A stretch of DNA of 10,101 bases from a virus: UHGV virus genome UHGV-0372619, one strand, 5' to 3'. The translations under genes were made by a program, and so were the position numbers. A model generated the notes under the pieces. It did no database searches, was not told the DNA's origin, and saw only the letters and a list, made by a program, of their open reading frames with translations. Of this stretch, positions 2,335-10,101 are shown one piece after another; within the stretch, counting starts at the first letter, position 1, and each line of letters begins with the position of its first letter.

Positions 2335-2406
2335 TATTATTTACTCATGTTCTAACTGATTTAATATTTATATCGAACACTGATAATTATTCTGTTGGTT
2401 AGCTAT
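2335..2406 (+). promoter_or_regulatory. AT-rich intergenic region upstream of the inserted lipoprotein gene; putative sigma70-type promoter (weak -10-like hexamers such as GATAAT at 2382-2387 and TAATAT at 2362-2367)
   Basis: A 72-nt stretch far more AT-rich than the flanking tail genes, with several TATAAT-like hexamers but no convincing -35 and no strong Shine-Dalgarno. The promoter assignment is an inference from the cassette architecture. Confidence 0.25.
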
Positions 2407-2745
2407 ATGAACAAAACGATTTTATTCTGCACGATTATTGCCTTAACAGGATGTAAATCTTTGGATTACGTAAAATCCGGCAAGACTGTAATGGAAGGTA
2501 ATTCATTAAAAAATATTGATGAATTGTCAGGCTGCATATCCAGACAATGGGCTGGTAATGGAACACCTATAACATCCCTTCCTATTGAGAATGGGGTAAG
2601 CCTTTTAGTTCCACAGGCTATGGGTGGGTATGATGTTGTGCTTGATATCAAAAAAGCAGGAAATGGCAGTAGTTTTACTCTTTATGAACGCGTACCAGCA
2701 TTAACGCCAAAAATTTTTGCTGATAGTGTTAATGCATGTAAATAA
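2407..2745 (+). CDS. Small predicted lipoprotein of unknown function (about 112 aa), low-GC insertion between tail genes I and J
   Basis: ORF 2395..2745 in the track. I prefer ATG 2407, which gives MNKTILFCTIIALTGC: a classic lipoprotein signal peptide with lipobox L-T-G-C. The +2 residue is Lys, not Asp, which suggests outer-membrane sorting. Two further Cys (CISRQW and C-terminal NACK) could form a periplasmic disulfide. Composition is markedly AT-rich against the flanking genes, and lambda has no counterpart here (I abuts J in lambda as I recall). Confidence 0.7.
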   Translation: MNKTILFCTIIALTGCKSLDYVKSGKTVMEGNSLKNIDELSGCISRQWAGNGTPITSLPIENGVSLLVPQAMGGYDVVLDIKKAGNGSSFTLYERVPALTPKIFADSVNACK

Positions 2746-2769
2746 TAGTTAATCCTGCCGTAACTCATG

Positions 2770-2797
2770 AGCCGCCTTTTGGGCGGCTTTGTTGTTT
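2770..2797 (+). terminator. Putative rho-independent terminator downstream of the lipoprotein gene
   Basis: Inverted repeat AGCCGCC-(loop)-GGCGGCT at 2770-2788 followed by a T-rich tract TTGTTGTTT, located between the lipoprotein stop (2745) and the J ribosome-binding site. Confidence 0.5.
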
Positions 2798-2811
2798 ATG
2801 GAGTGTGAGGA

Positions 2812-5800
2812 ATGGGTAAAGGTAGCAGTAAGGGGCATACCCCGCGCGAAGCGAAGGACAACCTGAAGTCCACGCAGCTGCTGAGTGTGATCGATGCCAT
2901 CAGCGAAGGGCCGGTTGAAGGTCCGGTGGATGGATTAAAAAGCGTGCTGCTGAACAGTACGCCGGTGCTGGACAGTGAGGGGAATACCAATATCTCCGGC
3001 GTCACGGTGGTGTTCCGGGCAGGTGAGCAGGAGCAGACACCGCCTGAGGGCTTTGAATCCTCCGGCTCCGAGACGGTGCTGGGTACGGAAGTGAAGTACG
3101 ACACGCCGATTACCCGGACCATCACGTCTGCAAACATCGACCGTCTGCGCTTTACCTTCGGTGTGCAGGCACTGGTGGAAACCACCTCAAAGGGGGACCG
3201 GAATCCGTCGGAAGTCCGCCTGCTGGTTCAGATACAACGTAACGGTGGCTGGGTGACGGAAAAAGACATCACCATTAAGGGCAAAACCACGTCGCAGTAT
3301 CTGGCCTCGGTGGTGGTGGATAACCTGCCGCCGCGCCCGTTTAATATCCGGATGCGCAGGATGACGCCGGACAGCACCACAGACCAGCTGCAGAACAAAA
3401 CGCTCTGGTCGTCATACACCGAAATCATCGATGTGAAACAGTGCTACCCGAACACGGTACTGGTCGGCGTGCAGGTGGACTCGGAGCAGTTCGGCAGCCA
3501 GCAGGTGAGCCGTAATTATCATCTGCGCGGGCGTATTCTGCAGGTGCCGTCGAACTATAACCCGCAGACGCGGCAATACAGCGGTATCTGGGACGGAACG
3601 TTTAAGCCAGCATACAGCAATAACATGGCCTGGTGTCTGTGGGATATGCTGACCCATCCGCGCTACGGCATGGGGAAACGTCTTGGTGCGGCGGATGTGG
3701 ATAAATGGGCGCTGTATGTCATCGGCCAGTACTGCGACCAGTCGGTGCCGGACGGCTTTGGCGGCACGGAGCCGCGCATCACCTGTAATGCCTGGCTGAC
3801 CACGCAGCGCAAGGCGTGGGATGTGCTCAGTGATTTCTGCTCGGCGATGCGCTGTATGCCGGTATGGAACGGGCAGACGCTGACGTTCGTGCAGGACCGA
3901 CCATCAGATAAGGTGTGGACCTATAACCGCAGTAATGTGGTGATGCCGGATGATGGCGCGCCGTTCCGCTACAGCTTCAGCGCCCTGAAGGACCGCCATA
4001 ATGCCGTTGAGGTGAACTGGATTGACCCGAACAACGGCTGGGAGACGGCGACAGAGCTTGTGGAGGATACGCAGGCCATTGCCCGTTACGGTCGTAACGT
4101 CACGAAGATGGATGCTTTTGGCTGTACCAGCCGGGGGCAGGCACACCGCGCCGGGCTGTGGCTGATTAAAACAGAACTGCTGGAAACGCAGACCGTGGAC
4201 TTCAGCGTGGGCGCAGAAGGGCTTCGCCATGTGCCGGGCGATGTCATTGAAATCTGTGATGATGACTATGCCGGTATCAGCATCGGCGGGCGCGTGCTGG
4301 CGGTAAACAGCCAGACCCGGACGCTGACGCTCGACCGTGAAATCACGCTGCCATCCTCCGGTACCACGCTGATAAGCCTGGTTGACGGAAGTGGTAATCC
4401 GGTCAGCGTGGAGGTTCAGTCCGTCACCGACGGACTTAAGGTGAAAGTGAACCGGGTTCCTGACGGCGTTGCAGAATACAGTGTGTGGGGGCTGAAGTTG
4501 CCGACGTTGCGTCAGCGCCTGTTCCGCTGTGTGAGTATCCGTGATAACGATGACGGCACGTATGCCATCACCGCCGTGCAGCATGTACCGGAAAAAGAAG
4601 CCATCGTGGATAACGGGGCGCACTTTGACGGCGGCCAGAGCGGCACGGTGAATGGTGTCACGCCGCCAGCGGTGCAGCACCTGACCGCCGAAGTCACCGC
4701 AGACAGCGGGGAATATCAGGTGCTGGCGCGCTGGGACACGCCGAAGGTGGTGAAGGGCGTGAGCTTCCTGCTCCGTCTGACCGTAACAGCGGATGACGGC
4801 AGTGAGCGGCTGGTCAGCACGGCCCGGACGACGGAAACCACATACCGCTTCACGCAACTGGCGCTGGGAAACTACAGGCTGACAGTCCGGGCGGCAAATG
4901 CCTGGGGGCAGCAGGGCGATCCGGCATCGGTATCGTTCCGGATTGCCGCACCGGCAGCACCGTCGCGGATTGAGCTGACGCCGGGCTATTTTCAGATAAC
5001 CGCAACGCCGCATCTTGCCGTTTATGATCCGACGGTACAGTTTGAGTTCTGGTTCTCGGAAAAGCGGATTGCGGATATCAGGCAGGTTGAAACCACAGCC
5101 CGCTATCTTGGCACGGCGCTGTACTGGATAGCCGCCAGTATCAATATCAAACCGGGCCATGATTATTATTTTTATATCCGTAGTGTGAACACTGTTGGCA
5201 AATCGGCATTTGTGGAGGCTGTCGGTCGGGCGAGCGATGATGCGGAAGGTTACCTGGATTTTTTCAAAGGCAAGATAACCGAATCCCATCTCGGCAAGGA
5301 GCTGCTGGAAAAAGTCGAGCTGACGGAGGATAACGCCAGCAGACTGGAGGAGTTTTCGAAAGAGTGGAAGGACGCCAACGATAAGTGGAATGCCATGTGG
5401 GCTGTCAAAATTGAGCAGACCAAAGACGGCAAACATTATGTCGCGGGTATTGGCCTCAGCATGGAGGACACGGAGGAAGGCAAACTGAGTCAGTTTCTGG
5501 TTGCCGCTAACCGTATCGCATTTATTGACCCGGCAAACGGGAATGAAACGCCGATGTTTGTGGCGCAGGGCAATCAGATATTCATGAACGACGTGTTCCT
5601 GAAGCGCCTGACGGCTCCCACCATTACCAGTGGTGGCAGTCCTCCGGTATTTTCCCTGACATCAGACGGAAAGCTGACCGCTAAAAATGCGGATATCAGT
5701 GGCAGTGTGAATGCGAACGCCGGGACGCTCAACAATGTCACGGTAAATGAAAACTGTACGATTAAGGGCATGCTGGAGGCGACTCAGGTCAGAGGTGACT

Positions 5801-6225
5801 TCGTTAAAGCTGTATCCAAATCATTTCCGAAACAGGCTGGTACGTGGGGTAACACGGAAACACCAAACGGGACGGTTACAGTCACCATCAGCGATGATCA
5901 TAACTTTGACCGTCAAATCATTATTCCGCCCATTATCTTTAACGGAATAGCGTATAGCGATCCGGGAAGTGGTAATAACCCGGGAGGTACAAGATACACG
6001 GGTTATGGTTTTGAAGTTCGCAAAAACGGTGTATTAATCGCATCCAGAGAAACTAAAGGGGCCATTCCCGGTAGCTACAGTGCGGTTATTGATATGCCGA
6101 GTGGCAGGGGAAGCGTCACTCTGGAGTTTAAGGTTTTCCATAAAGGCAATCAGTGGGCAGGTAATATCACCGACTGTACGGTGATTGTGACCAAAAAAGC
6201 CGCTTCCGGCATCAGTATTCGTTGA
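2812..6225 (+). CDS. J: Tail tip host-specificity protein J (central tail fibre), 1137 aa, with divergent C-terminal receptor-binding domain
   Basis: ORF 2812..6225 preceded by a GAGGA Shine-Dalgarno. The N-terminal [34 protein letters not shown]... and most of the length match lambda gpJ (1132 aa) as I recall it. The last ~150 aa (from about ...[34 protein letters not shown]... to ...[10 protein letters not shown]) diverge from the lambda C-terminus I remember. Confidence 0.92.
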
Positions 6226-6246
6226 AATTGTTATAACCCATATAAG

Positions 6247-6270
6247 GGCACCAGAAATGGTGCCTTTTTT
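6247..6270 (+). terminator. Putative rho-independent terminator between J and lom
   Basis: GGCACC-AGAAAT-GGTGCC stem-loop followed by TTTTTT, immediately after the J stop and upstream of the lom Shine-Dalgarno (GAGAGG). Confidence 0.5.
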
Positions 6271-6294: not shown

Positions 6295-6894
6295 ATGCGT
6301 AAACTTTATGCCGCCATTTTGTCCGCAGCCATTTGTCTGGCCGTATCCGGTGCGCCTGCATGGGCATCTGAACATCAGTCCACGCTGAGCGCGGGGTATC
6401 TTCATGCCTCGACGAACGTTCCCGGCAGCGATGATCTTAACGGGATTAACGTGAAATACCGTTATGAGTTTACGGATACGCTGGGGCTGGTGACGTCATT
6501 CAGCTATGCAGGAGACAAGAATCGCCAGCTTACCCGTTACAGCGATACCCGCTGGCATGAAGATTCCGTGCGTAACCGCTGGTTCAGCGTGATGGTGGGG
6601 CCGTCTGTGCGCGTGAATGAATGGTTCAGCGCGTATGCGATGGCGGGTATGGCTTACAGCCGTGTGTCGACTTTCTCCGGAGATTATCTCCGCGTAACTG
6701 ACAACAAGGGGAAAACGCACGACGTGCTGACCGGAAGTGATGACGGTCGCCACAGCAACACGTCTCTGGCGTGGGGAGCTGGCGTGCAGTTTAACCCGAC
6801 CGAATCCGTGGCCATTGATATTGCTTATGAAGGCTCCGGCAGTGGCGACTGGCGCACTGACGGTTTCATCGTGGGTGTCGGTTATAAATTCTGA
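6295..6894 (+). CDS. lom: Outer-membrane beta-barrel protein Lom (Ail/Lom/PagC family), 199 aa
   Basis: ORF 6295..6894. Signal peptide [24 protein letters not shown], followed by alternating aromatic/hydrophobic beta-strand patterns and a C-terminal ...[10 protein letters not shown] ending in Phe, typical of 8-stranded outer-membrane barrels. Same position (between J and stf) and high similarity to lambda Lom as I recall it. Confidence 0.88.
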
Positions 6895-6920: not shown

Positions 6921-6947
6921 AGCCCGCCGGTTCAGGCGGGCTTTTTT
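6921..6947 (+). terminator. Putative rho-independent terminator downstream of lom
   Basis: AGCCCGCC-GGTTCA-GGCGGGCT stem-loop followed by TTTTTT, 27 nt after the lom stop. Confidence 0.6.
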
Positions 6948-6958
6948 GTGGGGGGAAT

Positions 6959-9900
6959 ATGGCAGTAAAGATTTCAGGTGTACTGAAAGACGGCACAGGA
7001 AAACCGGTACAGAACTGCACAATCCAGCTGAAAGCAAAACGTAACAGCACCACGGTGGTGGTGAACACGCTGGCCTCAGAAAATCCGGATGAAGCCGGGC
7101 GTTACAGCATGGACGTTGAGTACGGTCAGTACAGCGTTATTCTGTTGGTGGAGGGATTCCCGCCGTCACATGCCGGGACCATCACCGTGTATGAAGATTC
7201 TCAACCCGGTACGCTGAATGATTTTCTCGGTGCCATGACGGAGGATGATGCCCGTCCGGAGGCATTGCGACGTTTTGAACTGATGGTGGAAGAGGTGGCG
7301 CGTAACGCGTCCGCAGTGGCACAGAACACGGCAGCCGCGAAGAAGTCAGCCGGCGATGCCGGCACATCTGCCCGTGAGGCGGCAACCCATGCGACTGATG
7401 CTGCAGGCTCAGCACGCGCAGCCAGCACGTCAGCCGGACAGGCCGCTTCGTCGGCTCAGTCAGCGTCTTCCAGCGCAGGAACGGCATCAACAAAGGCCAC
7501 TGAAGCGGAAAAAAGTGCTGCCGCTGCAGAGTCCTCAAAAAGCGCGGCAGCTACCAGTGCCAGTGCCGCGAAAACGTCAGAAACGAATGCTGCAGCGTCA
7601 CAACAATCAGCAGCCACTTCTGCATCCACCGCGACTACGAAAGCGTCAGAAGCTGCCACCTCAGCCCGGGATGCGTCGGCTTCAAAAGAGGCGGCAAAAT
7701 CATCAGAAACGAACGCATCCTCGAGCGCCAGCAGCGCAGCTTCCTCGGCAACGGCGGCAGCAAATTCCGCGAAGGCGGCAAAAACGTCCGAGACGAACGC
7801 CAGGTCTTCTGAGACGGCAGCGGGACAGAGCGCCTCAGCTGCGGCAGGCTCAAAAACAGCGGCTGCGTCGTCTGCCAGTGCCGCGTCAACAAGTGCCGGG
7901 CAGGCCTCAGCCAGTGCCATCGCCGCCGGAAAATCGGCAGAAAGCGCCGCATCATCCGCTTCAACAGCCACAACGAAGGCTGGCGAAGCCACTGAACAGG
8001 CCAGCGCAGCAGCGAGGTCAGCTTCCGCAGCGAAGACATCCGAAACGAACGCGAAAGCGTCGGAAACCAGCGCAGAATCCTCAAAAACGGCTGCCGCATC
8101 GTCCGCCAGTTCGGCGGCGTCATCGGCCTCATCGGCGTCTGCTTCAAAAGATGAGGCGACCAGACAGGCGTCAGCAGCGAAGGGCAGCGCCACGACGGCA
8201 TCCACGAAGGCAACAGAGGCTGCTGGCAGTGCGACGGCGGCAGCACAGAGCAAAAGTACGGCAGAATCCGCAGCAACGCGCGCTGAGACAGCGGCAAAAC
8301 GGGCAGAGGATATTGCATCCGCCGTGGCGCTTGAGGATGCGAGCACGACGAAAAAGGGGATAGTCCAGCTCAGTAGTGCAACCAACAGCACATCTGAAAC
8401 GCTTGCCGCGACACCGAAGGCAGTTAAAGCAGCGAATGACAATGCGAATGGCAGGGTACCATCTAACCGAAAAGTTAACGGGAAAGCACTGACTGCGGAT
8501 ATAACATTAACACCGAAAGATATTGGCACTTTAAATTCAGTAACGATCTCTTTCTCTGGCGGGGCAGGGTGGTTCAAACTGGCAACGGTTACCATGCCAC
8601 AAGCGAGTTCCATCGTTTACATCGCATTGATTGGTGGCGCTGGTTACAACGTCGGCTCCCCACAGCAGGCAGGCATTTCAGAACTGGTTCTACGAGCAGG
8701 CAATGGAAACCCCAAAGGGATTACCGGAGCTTTGTGGAAGCGTACAGCCGTCGGATTAACGAATTTCGCCTGGATCAACACATCCGGCGATACATATGAT
8801 ATTTACGTTGAGATTGGCAATTATGCGACGAGTGTAAATATCCATTGGGATTGTACTACAAATGCGTCAGTTTCTATTTATACCTCGCCAACATATTCAG
8901 CGAGTAAGCCTTCCAGCGTTACCGATGGTGTTGTTTATACGATGTATAGCTCACATCAGAAACCTACACCATCAGATATTGGAGCGCTGCCAACGACTGG
9001 AGGGACTATTTCAGGTCCGTTGTCTGTTACTGATGGGATCACCGGGGCACTGAAGGGGAACGCCGATACCGCGACGAAACTTGCGGCAGCCCCAAAAATT
9101 AACGGTGTTAAGTTTGATGGCTCGGCGGATATTAACCTCACGCCGGAAAATATTGGTGCATTTGCCCGACGTTCGACGGGAGCTTATGCGGATTCGGATG
9201 GAGCCGTTCCCTGGAATGCCGAATCAGGCGCTTACAATGTCACCCGCTCTGGCGACAGCTATATTCTGGTTAACTTCTATACCGGAGTCGGAAGTTGCCG
9301 GACCTTGCAGATGAAGGCGCATTACAGAAATGGTGGTCTGTTCTACCGTTCTTCAAGAGACGGTTATGGTTTTGAGGAAGACTGGGCAGAAGTTTATACC
9401 TCGAAAAATCTTCCACCAGAAAGCTACCCAGTAGGCGCACCAATCCCGTGGCCATCAGATACCGTTCCGTCTGGTTATGCCCTGATGCAGGGGCAGACTT
9501 TTGACAAATCTGCCTACCCAAAACTTGCAGCCGCTTATCCGTCAGGCGTGATCCCTGATATGCGTGGCTGGACGATTAAGGGCAAACCTGCCAGTGGTCG
9601 AGCCGTATTATCTCAGGAACAGGACGGCATTAAATCGCACACCCACAGCGCCAGCGCATCCAGTACGGATTTGGGGACGAAAAACACATCGTCGTTTGAT
9701 TACGGAACCAAATCCACGAATAACACCGGGGCGCATACCCATAGTATTAGCGGGACTGCAAATAGTGCCGGTGCGCACCAACACAAGAGTTCCGGTGCAT
9801 TTGGTGGCACGAACACGAGCATTTTCCCTAATGGTTATACCGCGATTTCAAATCTAAGCGCGGGGATTATGAGCACAACAAGCGGTAGTGGCCAGACTCG

Positions 9901-10101
9901 TAATGCAGGGAAGACATCATCAGATGGTGCTCATACCCACTCGCTGTCCGGCACTGCTGCAAGCGCAGGCGCACATGCACATACTGTCGGTATTGGTGCT
10001 CATACGCACTCCGTTGCGATTGGCTCACATGGACACACCATCACCGTTAACGCTGCTGGTAACGCGGAAAACACCGTCAAAAACATCGCATTTAACTATA
10101 T
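6959..10101 (+). CDS. stf: Side tail fibre protein Stf, 3'-truncated by the window end (at least 1047 codons); mosaic of lambda-like N-terminus, Ala/Ser-rich repeats, inserted central module and lambda/T4 gp37-like His-rich C-terminal region
   Basis: My own translation from ATG 6959 stays open to the window end, which is presumably why the ORF track lacks it (no in-window stop). N-terminal [26 protein letters not shown]... and C-terminal ...[71 protein letters not shown]...[13 protein letters not shown]...[26 protein letters not shown] match lambda Stf as I recall it. By that recollection the stop should lie only a few codons beyond the window. Confidence 0.85.
7330..8300 (+). repeat. Degenerate tandem Ala/Ser/Thr-rich repeats inside stf, with recurring A-K-T/S-S-E-T-N-A units
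   Basis: Recurring nucleotide motif GC[GA]AA[AG]AC[GA]TC[AC]GA[AG]AC[GA]AA[CT]GC at about 7568, 7694, 7788 and 8039, encoding AKTSETNA / AKSSETNA. The surrounding sequence is almost entirely A/S/T/E/K. This also creates the spurious Ala-rich reverse ORF and Arg-rich +1 ORF over the same span. Confidence 0.6.

Follow-up and report, generated by a model that had tools for sequence, protein, structure and literature searches.

Morons are well known in the tail operons of lambdoid phages, and so are lipoproteins encoded by morons. According to the criteria of Juhala and Hendrix, a moron is extra DNA between two genes that are adjacent in related phages and differs from its surroundings in base composition; further criteria are a promoter of its own, a terminator of its own, and expression from the repressed prophage (summarised in PMC3594210). 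The archetypal moron is HK97 gp15, which has a proven role in superinfection exclusion and does not act on a receptor (PMC3594210). Among small siphophage lipoproteins, Llp of T5 contains a Cys11-Cys58 disulfide, acts on FhuA from the periplasmic face, and has been described as a lytic-conversion protein, while Rtp45 of phage Rtp acts on LptD from the same face. For Lpp021 and Lpp010 of the mEpimmI phages, exclusion was shown experimentally in 2025, and the lipoprotein types track the use of OmpA or LamB. Here, we describe a lipoprotein gene located between tail genes I and J in a 10,101-nucleotide stretch of the virus genome UHGV-0372619, the whole of which is referred to below as the window. 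The gene is very probably a horizontally mobile, moron-type member of PHROG 914 that occupies the I-J spacer, and its product a substrate of signal peptidase II that becomes an outer-membrane lipoprotein with an alpha/beta domain and a disulfide between Cys43 and Cys111.

Extra DNA between tail genes I and J

The window comes from a lambda-like Escherichia coli prophage and spans its tail region, with the RefSeq gene order M, L, K (C40 peptidase), I, a hypothetical protein, J, Lom and side tail fibre. Over bases 2200-2900 it matches strain 4/1-1 and several further chromosomes with 100% identity. All features given in this section are on the + strand. Tail assembly gene I (1732-2334, taken from the RefSeq annotation of the identical region) ends with the stop codon TAA at 2332-2334, and the tail tip/host-specificity gene J (2812-6225, 1137 residues) starts with the ATG at 2812. 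Examination of guanine-cytosine (GC) content in 200-bp windows clearly shows a dip to 0.345-0.40 over positions 2300-2800 compared with 0.52-0.61 on either side, and the lipoprotein coding sequence has a GC content of 0.37 versus 0.56 and 0.59 in the 2-kb flanks. In lambda and mEp460, which lack the gene, the I stop codon is followed directly by tgcaaaatgttttatgt, then by a hairpin and its downstream bases, GAAACCGCC-loop-GGGCGGTTT-TGTC(A/G)TTTATGGAG, and then by the start of J. At the same place the window carries the hairpin GAGCCGCC-TTTT-GGGCGGCTT at 2769-2789, followed by TGTTGTTTAT, as detected by terminator scan and by folding (z = -2.3 to -2.9 relative to shuffles), and the stems of the two hairpins show compensatory differences. 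The complete terminator-like element, a 9-bp stem plus T-tract, spans 2769-2799 and lies directly before the J ribosome-binding site. The limits of the insert were read from an alignment of the window with mEp460 and from the 60-bp I-J spacer of lambda. Because the window hairpin is the orthologue of the one in the lambda and mEp460 spacer, the insert ends at 2768, and as judged from the alignment the foreign DNA is the 434 bp at 2335-2768, between the I stop codon and the pre-existing hairpin, in place of 17 bp of the spacer. The insert opens with an AT-rich 72-bp spacer (2335-2406) that is presumed to hold a promoter and a weak ribosome-binding region, followed by the lipoprotein gene at 2407-2745. 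No Rfam family was found within the window.

In lambda, the I-J hairpin and its T-tract are located in the interval 15380-15540 of NC_001416, at about 84-112 of that stretch, and mEp460 has both in its spacer as well. We know of no described role for this hairpin, which may have been left behind by moron turnover or may serve a function in the late operon.

Two of the moron criteria can be read directly from these data. The junction contains extra DNA, 434 bp in place of 17 bp, that is missing from 107 of 107 matched phage records, and its composition differs from that of the flanks, as is also the case at eight homologous loci (GC content 0.41-0.46 versus 0.44-0.54). A low-GC block at this junction (0.35-0.40 against 0.55-0.60), with an open reading frame (ORF) of about 112 residues that carries a lipobox followed by lysine, had been proposed from a sequence-only reading of the window, and both are borne out, as is the view of the block as foreign, moron-type cargo, given its lower GC content, the empty junction in lambda-type phages, and homologues at three junctions of the tail operon. 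The cassette, which that reading had placed at 2335-2800, is a real AT-rich insert, but the insert proper ends before the hairpin. Likewise, the downstream hairpin with its T-tract is present but is not the cassette's own, and the proposed self-contained arrangement of promoter, gene and terminator is not supported, with no demonstrable promoter and a hairpin that is native to the lambda I-J spacer. An alternative 116-residue form beginning with an ATG at 2395 has to be discarded, as the codon at 2395 is TTG. The statement that I is followed directly by J in lambda and its close relatives is right for lambda and holds in all 107 matched phage records, but not for HK022, which has annotated morons at both I-J and K-I.

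The PHROG 914 lipoprotein and its relatives

The 112-residue precursor is listed in RefSeq as WP_152934993, 'hypothetical protein'. Its N-terminus is MNKTILFCTIIALTGC followed by KSLD, and the longer opening stretch reads MNKTILFCTIIALTGCKSLD. The signal sequence and lipobox (2407-2454) consist of a charged n-region, a hydrophobic h-region and the lipobox (MNK-TILFCTIIA-LTGC), with Cys16 as the predicted lipidated residue and Lys and Ser at +2 and +3, and agree in every respect with a criterion of [LVI][ASTVI][GAS]C with the cysteine at position 15-35. Lipidation of Cys16 would leave a mature protein of 96 residues, which would be sorted by the Lol system to the outer membrane because the residue at +2 is Lys and not Asp. 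The same features recur throughout the family: 122 of 127 proteins have a lipobox, and none of the 122 has Asp at +2. We therefore infer lipidation and outer-membrane localisation from these residues. Exactly three cysteines are found in the mature part of 109 of the 122, and in 101 the last of them is penultimate. Across 54 diverse members, the only invariant positions are the lipobox cysteine C16, C43 and C111, with W48 and G63 nearly so. The codons for Cys43 (2533-2535) and Cys111 (2737-2739) delimit a + strand span of 2533-2739, defined from the alignment and the model. In the AlphaFold2 model (predicted local distance difference test 82, predicted template modelling score 0.73) the protein forms a beta-alpha-beta4-alpha domain with helices at 37-50 and 101-111, the first containing C43 and the second ending in C111, which makes a Cys43-Cys111 disulfide that joins helix 1 to the C-terminal helix probable. 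The model suggests a compact alpha/beta domain that the disulfide would staple, with a tether of about 10 residues linking it to the inner leaflet.

The protein matches phrog_914, a family annotated as function unknown, with E = 7.4e-32, residues 1-112 aligning with positions 1-118 of the 118-position profile, and all 54 of the diverse relatives match it as well. A profile search of 1.84 billion representatives gave 117 clusters, nearly all of 105-125 residues, and homologues with 47-61% identity are found in Jejubacter, Kluyvera, Klebsiella variicola and Enterobacter. Among the E. coli alleles, 11 synonymous and 5 non-synonymous changes segregate, giving a ratio of non-synonymous to synonymous polymorphism (pN/pS) of 0.13. 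Homologues in other Enterobacteriaceae, the total of ~117 clusters and this ratio indicate that the ORF is under purifying selection and is not a chance ORF. Judged by its residues, the protein is a precursor with outer-membrane-type sorting signals and belongs to a widespread, uncharacterised family. No Pfam family was matched by the window protein at E <= 10, and no paper was found in a search of the literature for the RefSeq accessions or phrog_914. Matches of the window protein or the 54 relatives to NCBIfam VirB7 and to Pfam DUF6491 and LPAM_1 were rejected as signal-peptide or sub-threshold matches, and a match to FlgP in a PDB sequence search (E = 1.1) involved the signal peptide alone. 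By fold, the model is closest to Francisella Flpp3, a small alpha/beta protein of Bet v1-like type, with moderate similarity, and a search of BFVD returned uncharacterised phage proteins throughout, the best being from Pseudomonas phage phiAH14a.

The enterobacterial subfamily is always found inside a lambda-like tail operon, at one of three junctions. In all 34 E. coli-type loci examined the gene lies at I-J, whereas it lies at K-I in Klebsiella variicola, in phage Fraca and in three IMG/VR loci (L043, L050 and L051), and, in Enterobacter-type loci (L007 and L044-L049), at T-H, where the tail chaperone gene meets that of the tape measure. Its orientation is that of the tail genes in all of the more than 40 tail-embedded loci, and in every lineage its GC content is below that of the flanks. 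A hairpin with a T-run follows the gene within about 20-40 nt in every lineage, with stem sequences that are unrelated between lineages, and homologues at K-I and T-H have hairpins of their own. Lambda has no spacer at K-I or T-H, and therefore the hairpins there arrived with the lipoprotein gene. Distant members with 20-27% identity are found outside tail operons: one in an island with integrase, RadC and transposase genes, one divergent from the replication module of a phage-like element, and one on the opposite strand beside the head genes of a small HK97-like element. Because the gene occupies several tail-operon junctions and its distant members lie elsewhere in mobile elements, gene order establishes it, at the level of sequence, as a mobile cargo gene that forms a unit of its own in many different contexts.

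At some loci the gene has company. In a Jejubacter-type prophage (L042:3051-7855) the K-I junction holds about 4 kb of extra cargo with antirepressor/KilA-like ORFs and an XRE-type regulator, followed by the PHROG 914 lipoprotein and then by an unrelated second lipoprotein of 149 residues (7406-7855) that directly precedes I. A further small ORF separates K from the lipoprotein gene in Fraca (L002:3725-3994, 89 residues) and at about 6231-7000 of L043. The cassette may therefore comprise two genes in some lineages.

In order to assess how common the element is, the 477-bp cassette was compared with 5426 complete E. coli genomes, and was found with 95-100% identity in 337 of them, at 349 places and up to three times per genome. 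Carriers, among them O104:H4 C227-11 and APEC O1, invariably list the ORF as 'hypothetical protein'. The I-J junction itself was located at 8610 places in 4281 genomes, and approximately 4% of these junctions bear the cassette, so that the comparison of junctions called for by the sequence-only reading shows the gene missing from ~96% of them. Among phage records the cassette was absent from all 107 with near-identical I and J flanks, and a tblastn search of 50,697 phage records gave a sole relative, in the temperate phage Fraca, at 30% identity. Homology searches thus identify a family without a characterised function and not a conserved component of the tail operon. A structural or assembly role in the tail, or a spurious ORF, is extremely improbable: the gene is inside the tail operon and was long missed by annotation pipelines (the RS3xxxx locus tags were added late), but it is absent from most E. 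coli junctions and from the matched phages, a lipoprotein export signal cannot be reconciled with tail assembly in the cytoplasm, and the ORF is conserved across genera under purifying selection.

Candidate functions

By analogy with the characterised small lipoproteins of siphophage tail regions and with the gp15 moron at T-H, the single most likely function is that of an envelope-level phage-exclusion or lytic-conversion factor, a proposal that we make tentatively. From the periplasmic side the lipoprotein would bind either the tail tip as it arrives or an outer-membrane component of the host, so that related siphophages could not adsorb productively or deliver their DNA; the lysogen, the released progeny, or both would be protected. 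The data favour a target that is independent of the J receptor-binding domain (RBD) as likelier than masking of the cognate receptor; such a target might be, for example, a conserved face of an outer-membrane protein or a conserved step in the penetration of lambda-like tails. The gene would be expected to be expressed by Q-antiterminated read-through of the late operon, and low-level expression from the prophage, from a local putative promoter and stopping at the 2769-2799 hairpin, is possible as well.

Several observations weigh against this proposal. No homology connects PHROG 914 to exclusion, and the window protein matched none of the PADLOC-DB v2 anti-phage models at E <= 10. In fold and size (96 residues) it is unlike Llp, Cor and Rtp45 (about 6 kDa); the lipoproteins with proven exclusion (Cor, Lpp021, Lpp010, Llp and Rtp45) have mature parts of about 55-65 residues and are encoded beside the receptor-binding end, whereas the PHROG 914 gene lies at the 5' side of J or further upstream. 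Near-identical lipoproteins precede at least three receptor-binding types of J, with identities of 46-69% over the last 200 residues, and tape measure, G and T switch type among the loci while M-L-K-I remain at ~90-100% in nearly all of them. The distant members lie outside tail operons altogether. Upstream on the + strand, no sigma-70 promoter was found at 9/12 or better with a 16-18 nt spacer, and the relaxed matches TTAATA-15-GATAAT (9/12) and TTTACT-17-AATATT (8/12) are equalled by 90% of spacer shuffles. In Klebsiella, merely 32 bp separate K from the lipoprotein ATG. Finally, genomes with the cassette often contain several further lambda-like prophages, and some contain two or three copies of the cassette, which argues against strong exclusion of close relatives.

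One form of the exclusion proposal would account for the pattern of exchange. At three junctions the lipoprotein accompanies the conserved M-L-K-I-J(N) block, around which J tips and tape measures are exchanged, as would be explained if the block to infection were independent of the RBD. PHROG 914 would then be a new class of outer-membrane lipoprotein that, from the periplasmic side, intercepts the N-terminal part of J, L, M, I or the tape measure as it emerges through the outer membrane, thereby blocking a conserved step of penetration by the tail tip, or that targets a general outer-membrane factor on which many siphophages depend. We regard this version as rather unlikely.

The main rival is a moron for host fitness or virulence in the manner of Bor/Iss or Lom, contributing to serum resistance, adhesion, stress or antimicrobial tolerance, or lipid binding, with no part in phage conflict. 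We consider this possible, although not likely. The same operon holds the moron Lom (6295-6894), the cassette is carried by the pathogens named above, distant relatives occur in non-tail contexts, the lipoprotein is intact in defective prophages, and the modelled fold resembles Flpp3. Against these points, there is no sequence relation to Bor, the cassette is found equally among commensal, animal and environmental isolates and in further genera, the similarity to Flpp3 is moderate with only 6-9% sequence identity, and the enterobacterial subfamily is confined to tail operons.

Another explanation is that the gene serves the lytic cycle only, as an accessory gene that lacks its own promoter, is transcribed solely with the late operon, and acts late in infection and not in lysogenic conversion, for example by keeping progeny off debris or by modulating envelope breakdown. 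The uniform orientation with the tail genes, the lack of a significant promoter match, the short K-lipoprotein distance in Klebsiella, the I-J hairpin that lambda already has, and the description of Llp as a lytic-conversion protein are all in keeping with it. However, the hairpins that newly accompany the gene at K-I and T-H fit best with transcripts that are not antiterminated, the distant members are divergently oriented independent units, and the ORF stays intact in prophages with a truncated J. A purely lytic role is, on balance, quite unlikely.

Masking of the phage's own receptor, in which the receptor of the neighbouring J in the outer membrane would be inactivated by the lipoprotein, as FhuA is by Cor and Llp, had appeared attractive from the position of the gene beside J. 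In order to evaluate it, the pairing of lipoprotein and J was compared across loci. The C-terminal 198 residues of the window J are identical to those of Stx1a/Stx2c long-tailed phages and of phage Perceval, and this tip type is also common to Ayreon and cdtI. Other prophages with the cassette have a J of 1159 residues of the VT1-Sakai/PPompW type. The two types share 95-100% identity over the first ~800 alignment columns but 46-57% over most of the last ~370, with 74% in one block of 100 columns. J is thus mosaic (window 5200-6225), with at least three tip classes swapped behind an unchanged N-terminal part. The lipoprotein itself hardly varies: across the 34 loci there are six intact alleles, each within one residue of the commonest, and the gene is disrupted in two. 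It nonetheless precedes at least three intact classes of J tip that share 49-69% identity pairwise. In six prophages with a truncated J (L012, L016, L017, L019, L022 and L031) its ORF is intact; the first of these has an IS21-family insertion in the tape-measure gene, and in L016 the identity of I falls to 55%.

Since one lipoprotein, at least 98% identical, pairs with at least three receptor-binding types of J and sits at the far end from the receptor-binding region, the masking hypothesis is weakened. Relatives with ~50% identity accompany wholly different J proteins of 1186 and of 3100-3367 residues, and the gene is at least 2.5-3.4 kb from the RBD-coding end, whereas the genes for Cor, Lpp021 and Lpp010 come directly after J. 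In addition, the same J C-termini occur in phages without the lipoprotein gene, and the globular domain does not align with Cor. It is important to point out that divergent natural gpJ tips of E. coli prophages can share the receptor OmpC, so that a difference in J type does not by itself imply a difference in receptor. Adjacency to J in E. coli, a predicted disulfide that joins N-proximal and C-terminal parts as in Llp and Cor, and a motif beyond the lipobox that aligns with Cor (30 columns, 93%) also speak for masking. Nevertheless, cognate masking is not supported, and we consider it improbable.

Surrounding genes and comparison with described systems

Downstream of J, the Lom gene (Ail/Lom, 6295-6894) is located between strong terminator-like hairpins at 6244-6267 and 6921-6942, a classical moron layout, and these two hairpins are the best-scoring in the window apart from the one at I-J. 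The gene for the side tail fibre (6959-10101) runs off the end of the window; its N-terminal half is long, repetitive and rich in Ala, Ser and Thr, and His-rich repeats of the GAHTHS type lie near the window end. A 510-residue antisense ORF on the - strand inside J (3904-5436) is probably a by-product of the high-GC coding strand. Outside the window, at the prfC end of the same prophage (L001:20860-23082), the RefSeq annotation lists a TIR-domain anti-phage reverse transcriptase together with a DinI-like protein, and this end looks like a hotspot for defence cargo.

About 6% of complete E. coli genomes, the O104:H4 outbreak strain and APEC O1 among them, carry the cassette, relatives are found in Klebsiella, Enterobacter, Kluyvera and many other Proteobacteria, and the family has neither a name nor a Pfam entry. 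Should the protein prove to be an exclusion factor, Cor, Llp and Rtp45 would be joined by a structurally new class of lipoprotein, which would matter for phage therapy and for lambda-derived delivery vectors relying on the same J variants. Should it prove to be a host-fitness factor, it would represent a further prophage contribution to the envelope biology of pathogens. At 339 bp the gene is compact and easily cloned.

The PHROG 914 lipoprotein is an uncharacterised moron lipoprotein that is not assignable to a named family. The sequence-only reading had found no likeness to Bor and could not assign the protein to Cor or Llp, which Pfam, PHROGs and profile comparison confirm. Bor/Iss and Lom of lambda are likewise envelope proteins encoded by morons of lambdoid prophages, but differ in genomic position and fold, Lom being a beta-barrel, and Pfam Lambda_Bor was not matched even at E <= 10. 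Flpp3 (DUF3568) is chromosomal and not phage-borne, and besides its low sequence identity the window protein has no match to Pfam DUF3568.

Llp and Rtp45 are small, periplasm-facing outer-membrane lipoproteins of siphophages with genes beside those for receptor binding, Llp next to pb5 and Rtp45 next to the Rtp receptor-binding protein. At ~6 kDa both differ from the 96-residue beta-alpha-beta4-alpha domain of the window protein, and membership of this type was rejected, as there is no sequence or fold similarity to the solved proteins. The mEpimmI lipoproteins are encoded in the structural cluster of temperate E. coli siphophages with lambda-like L, K, I and J, but Lpp021 (mEp021, 72 residues) and Lpp010 (mEp010, 82 residues) are located just after J on the opposite strand. 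Homology to them was also rejected: hhalign aligned only 16-20 columns of signal peptide, with a probability of 35-52%, and the tblastn search of phage records missed both.

Cor (phi80, N15, HK022 and T1; phrog_1119) is similarly a prophage outer-membrane lipoprotein encoded in the tail region, with two further cysteines of which the last is penultimate or near-terminal. The signal peptides and about 14 mature residues of the two proteins align (hhalign, 30 columns, probability 93%). Common to both is the motif GC-x-x-(x-x)-L-x-K/R-x-P past the lipidated cysteine (window 2452-2490), which could be a common tether or sorting motif, or could reflect convergence. Cor has 77 residues (~60 mature) versus 112 (96 mature) for the window protein, the globular parts do not align, and in HK022 its gene is downstream of J. 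As a homologue it was rejected, with phrog_1119 matching at E = 0.44 over residues 1-31 only and a profile alignment that covers signal peptide and linker.

In position, the closest parallels are morons of other kinds. HK022 has annotated morons at the junctions that PHROG 914 genes use, gp20 at K-I and gp22/gp23 at I-J; gp20 is a 74-residue protein with a membrane helix, not a lipoprotein, and has no sequence relation to the window protein. HK97 gp15 also differs, being a small inner-membrane protein that is not a lipoprotein and is unrelated in sequence. The likeness to gp15 lies in the arrangement, as both are extra, compositionally distinct genes between adjacent tail genes of a lambda-like siphophage, and the site of gp15, between chaperone T and the tape measure, is the exact position of the Enterobacter homologue.

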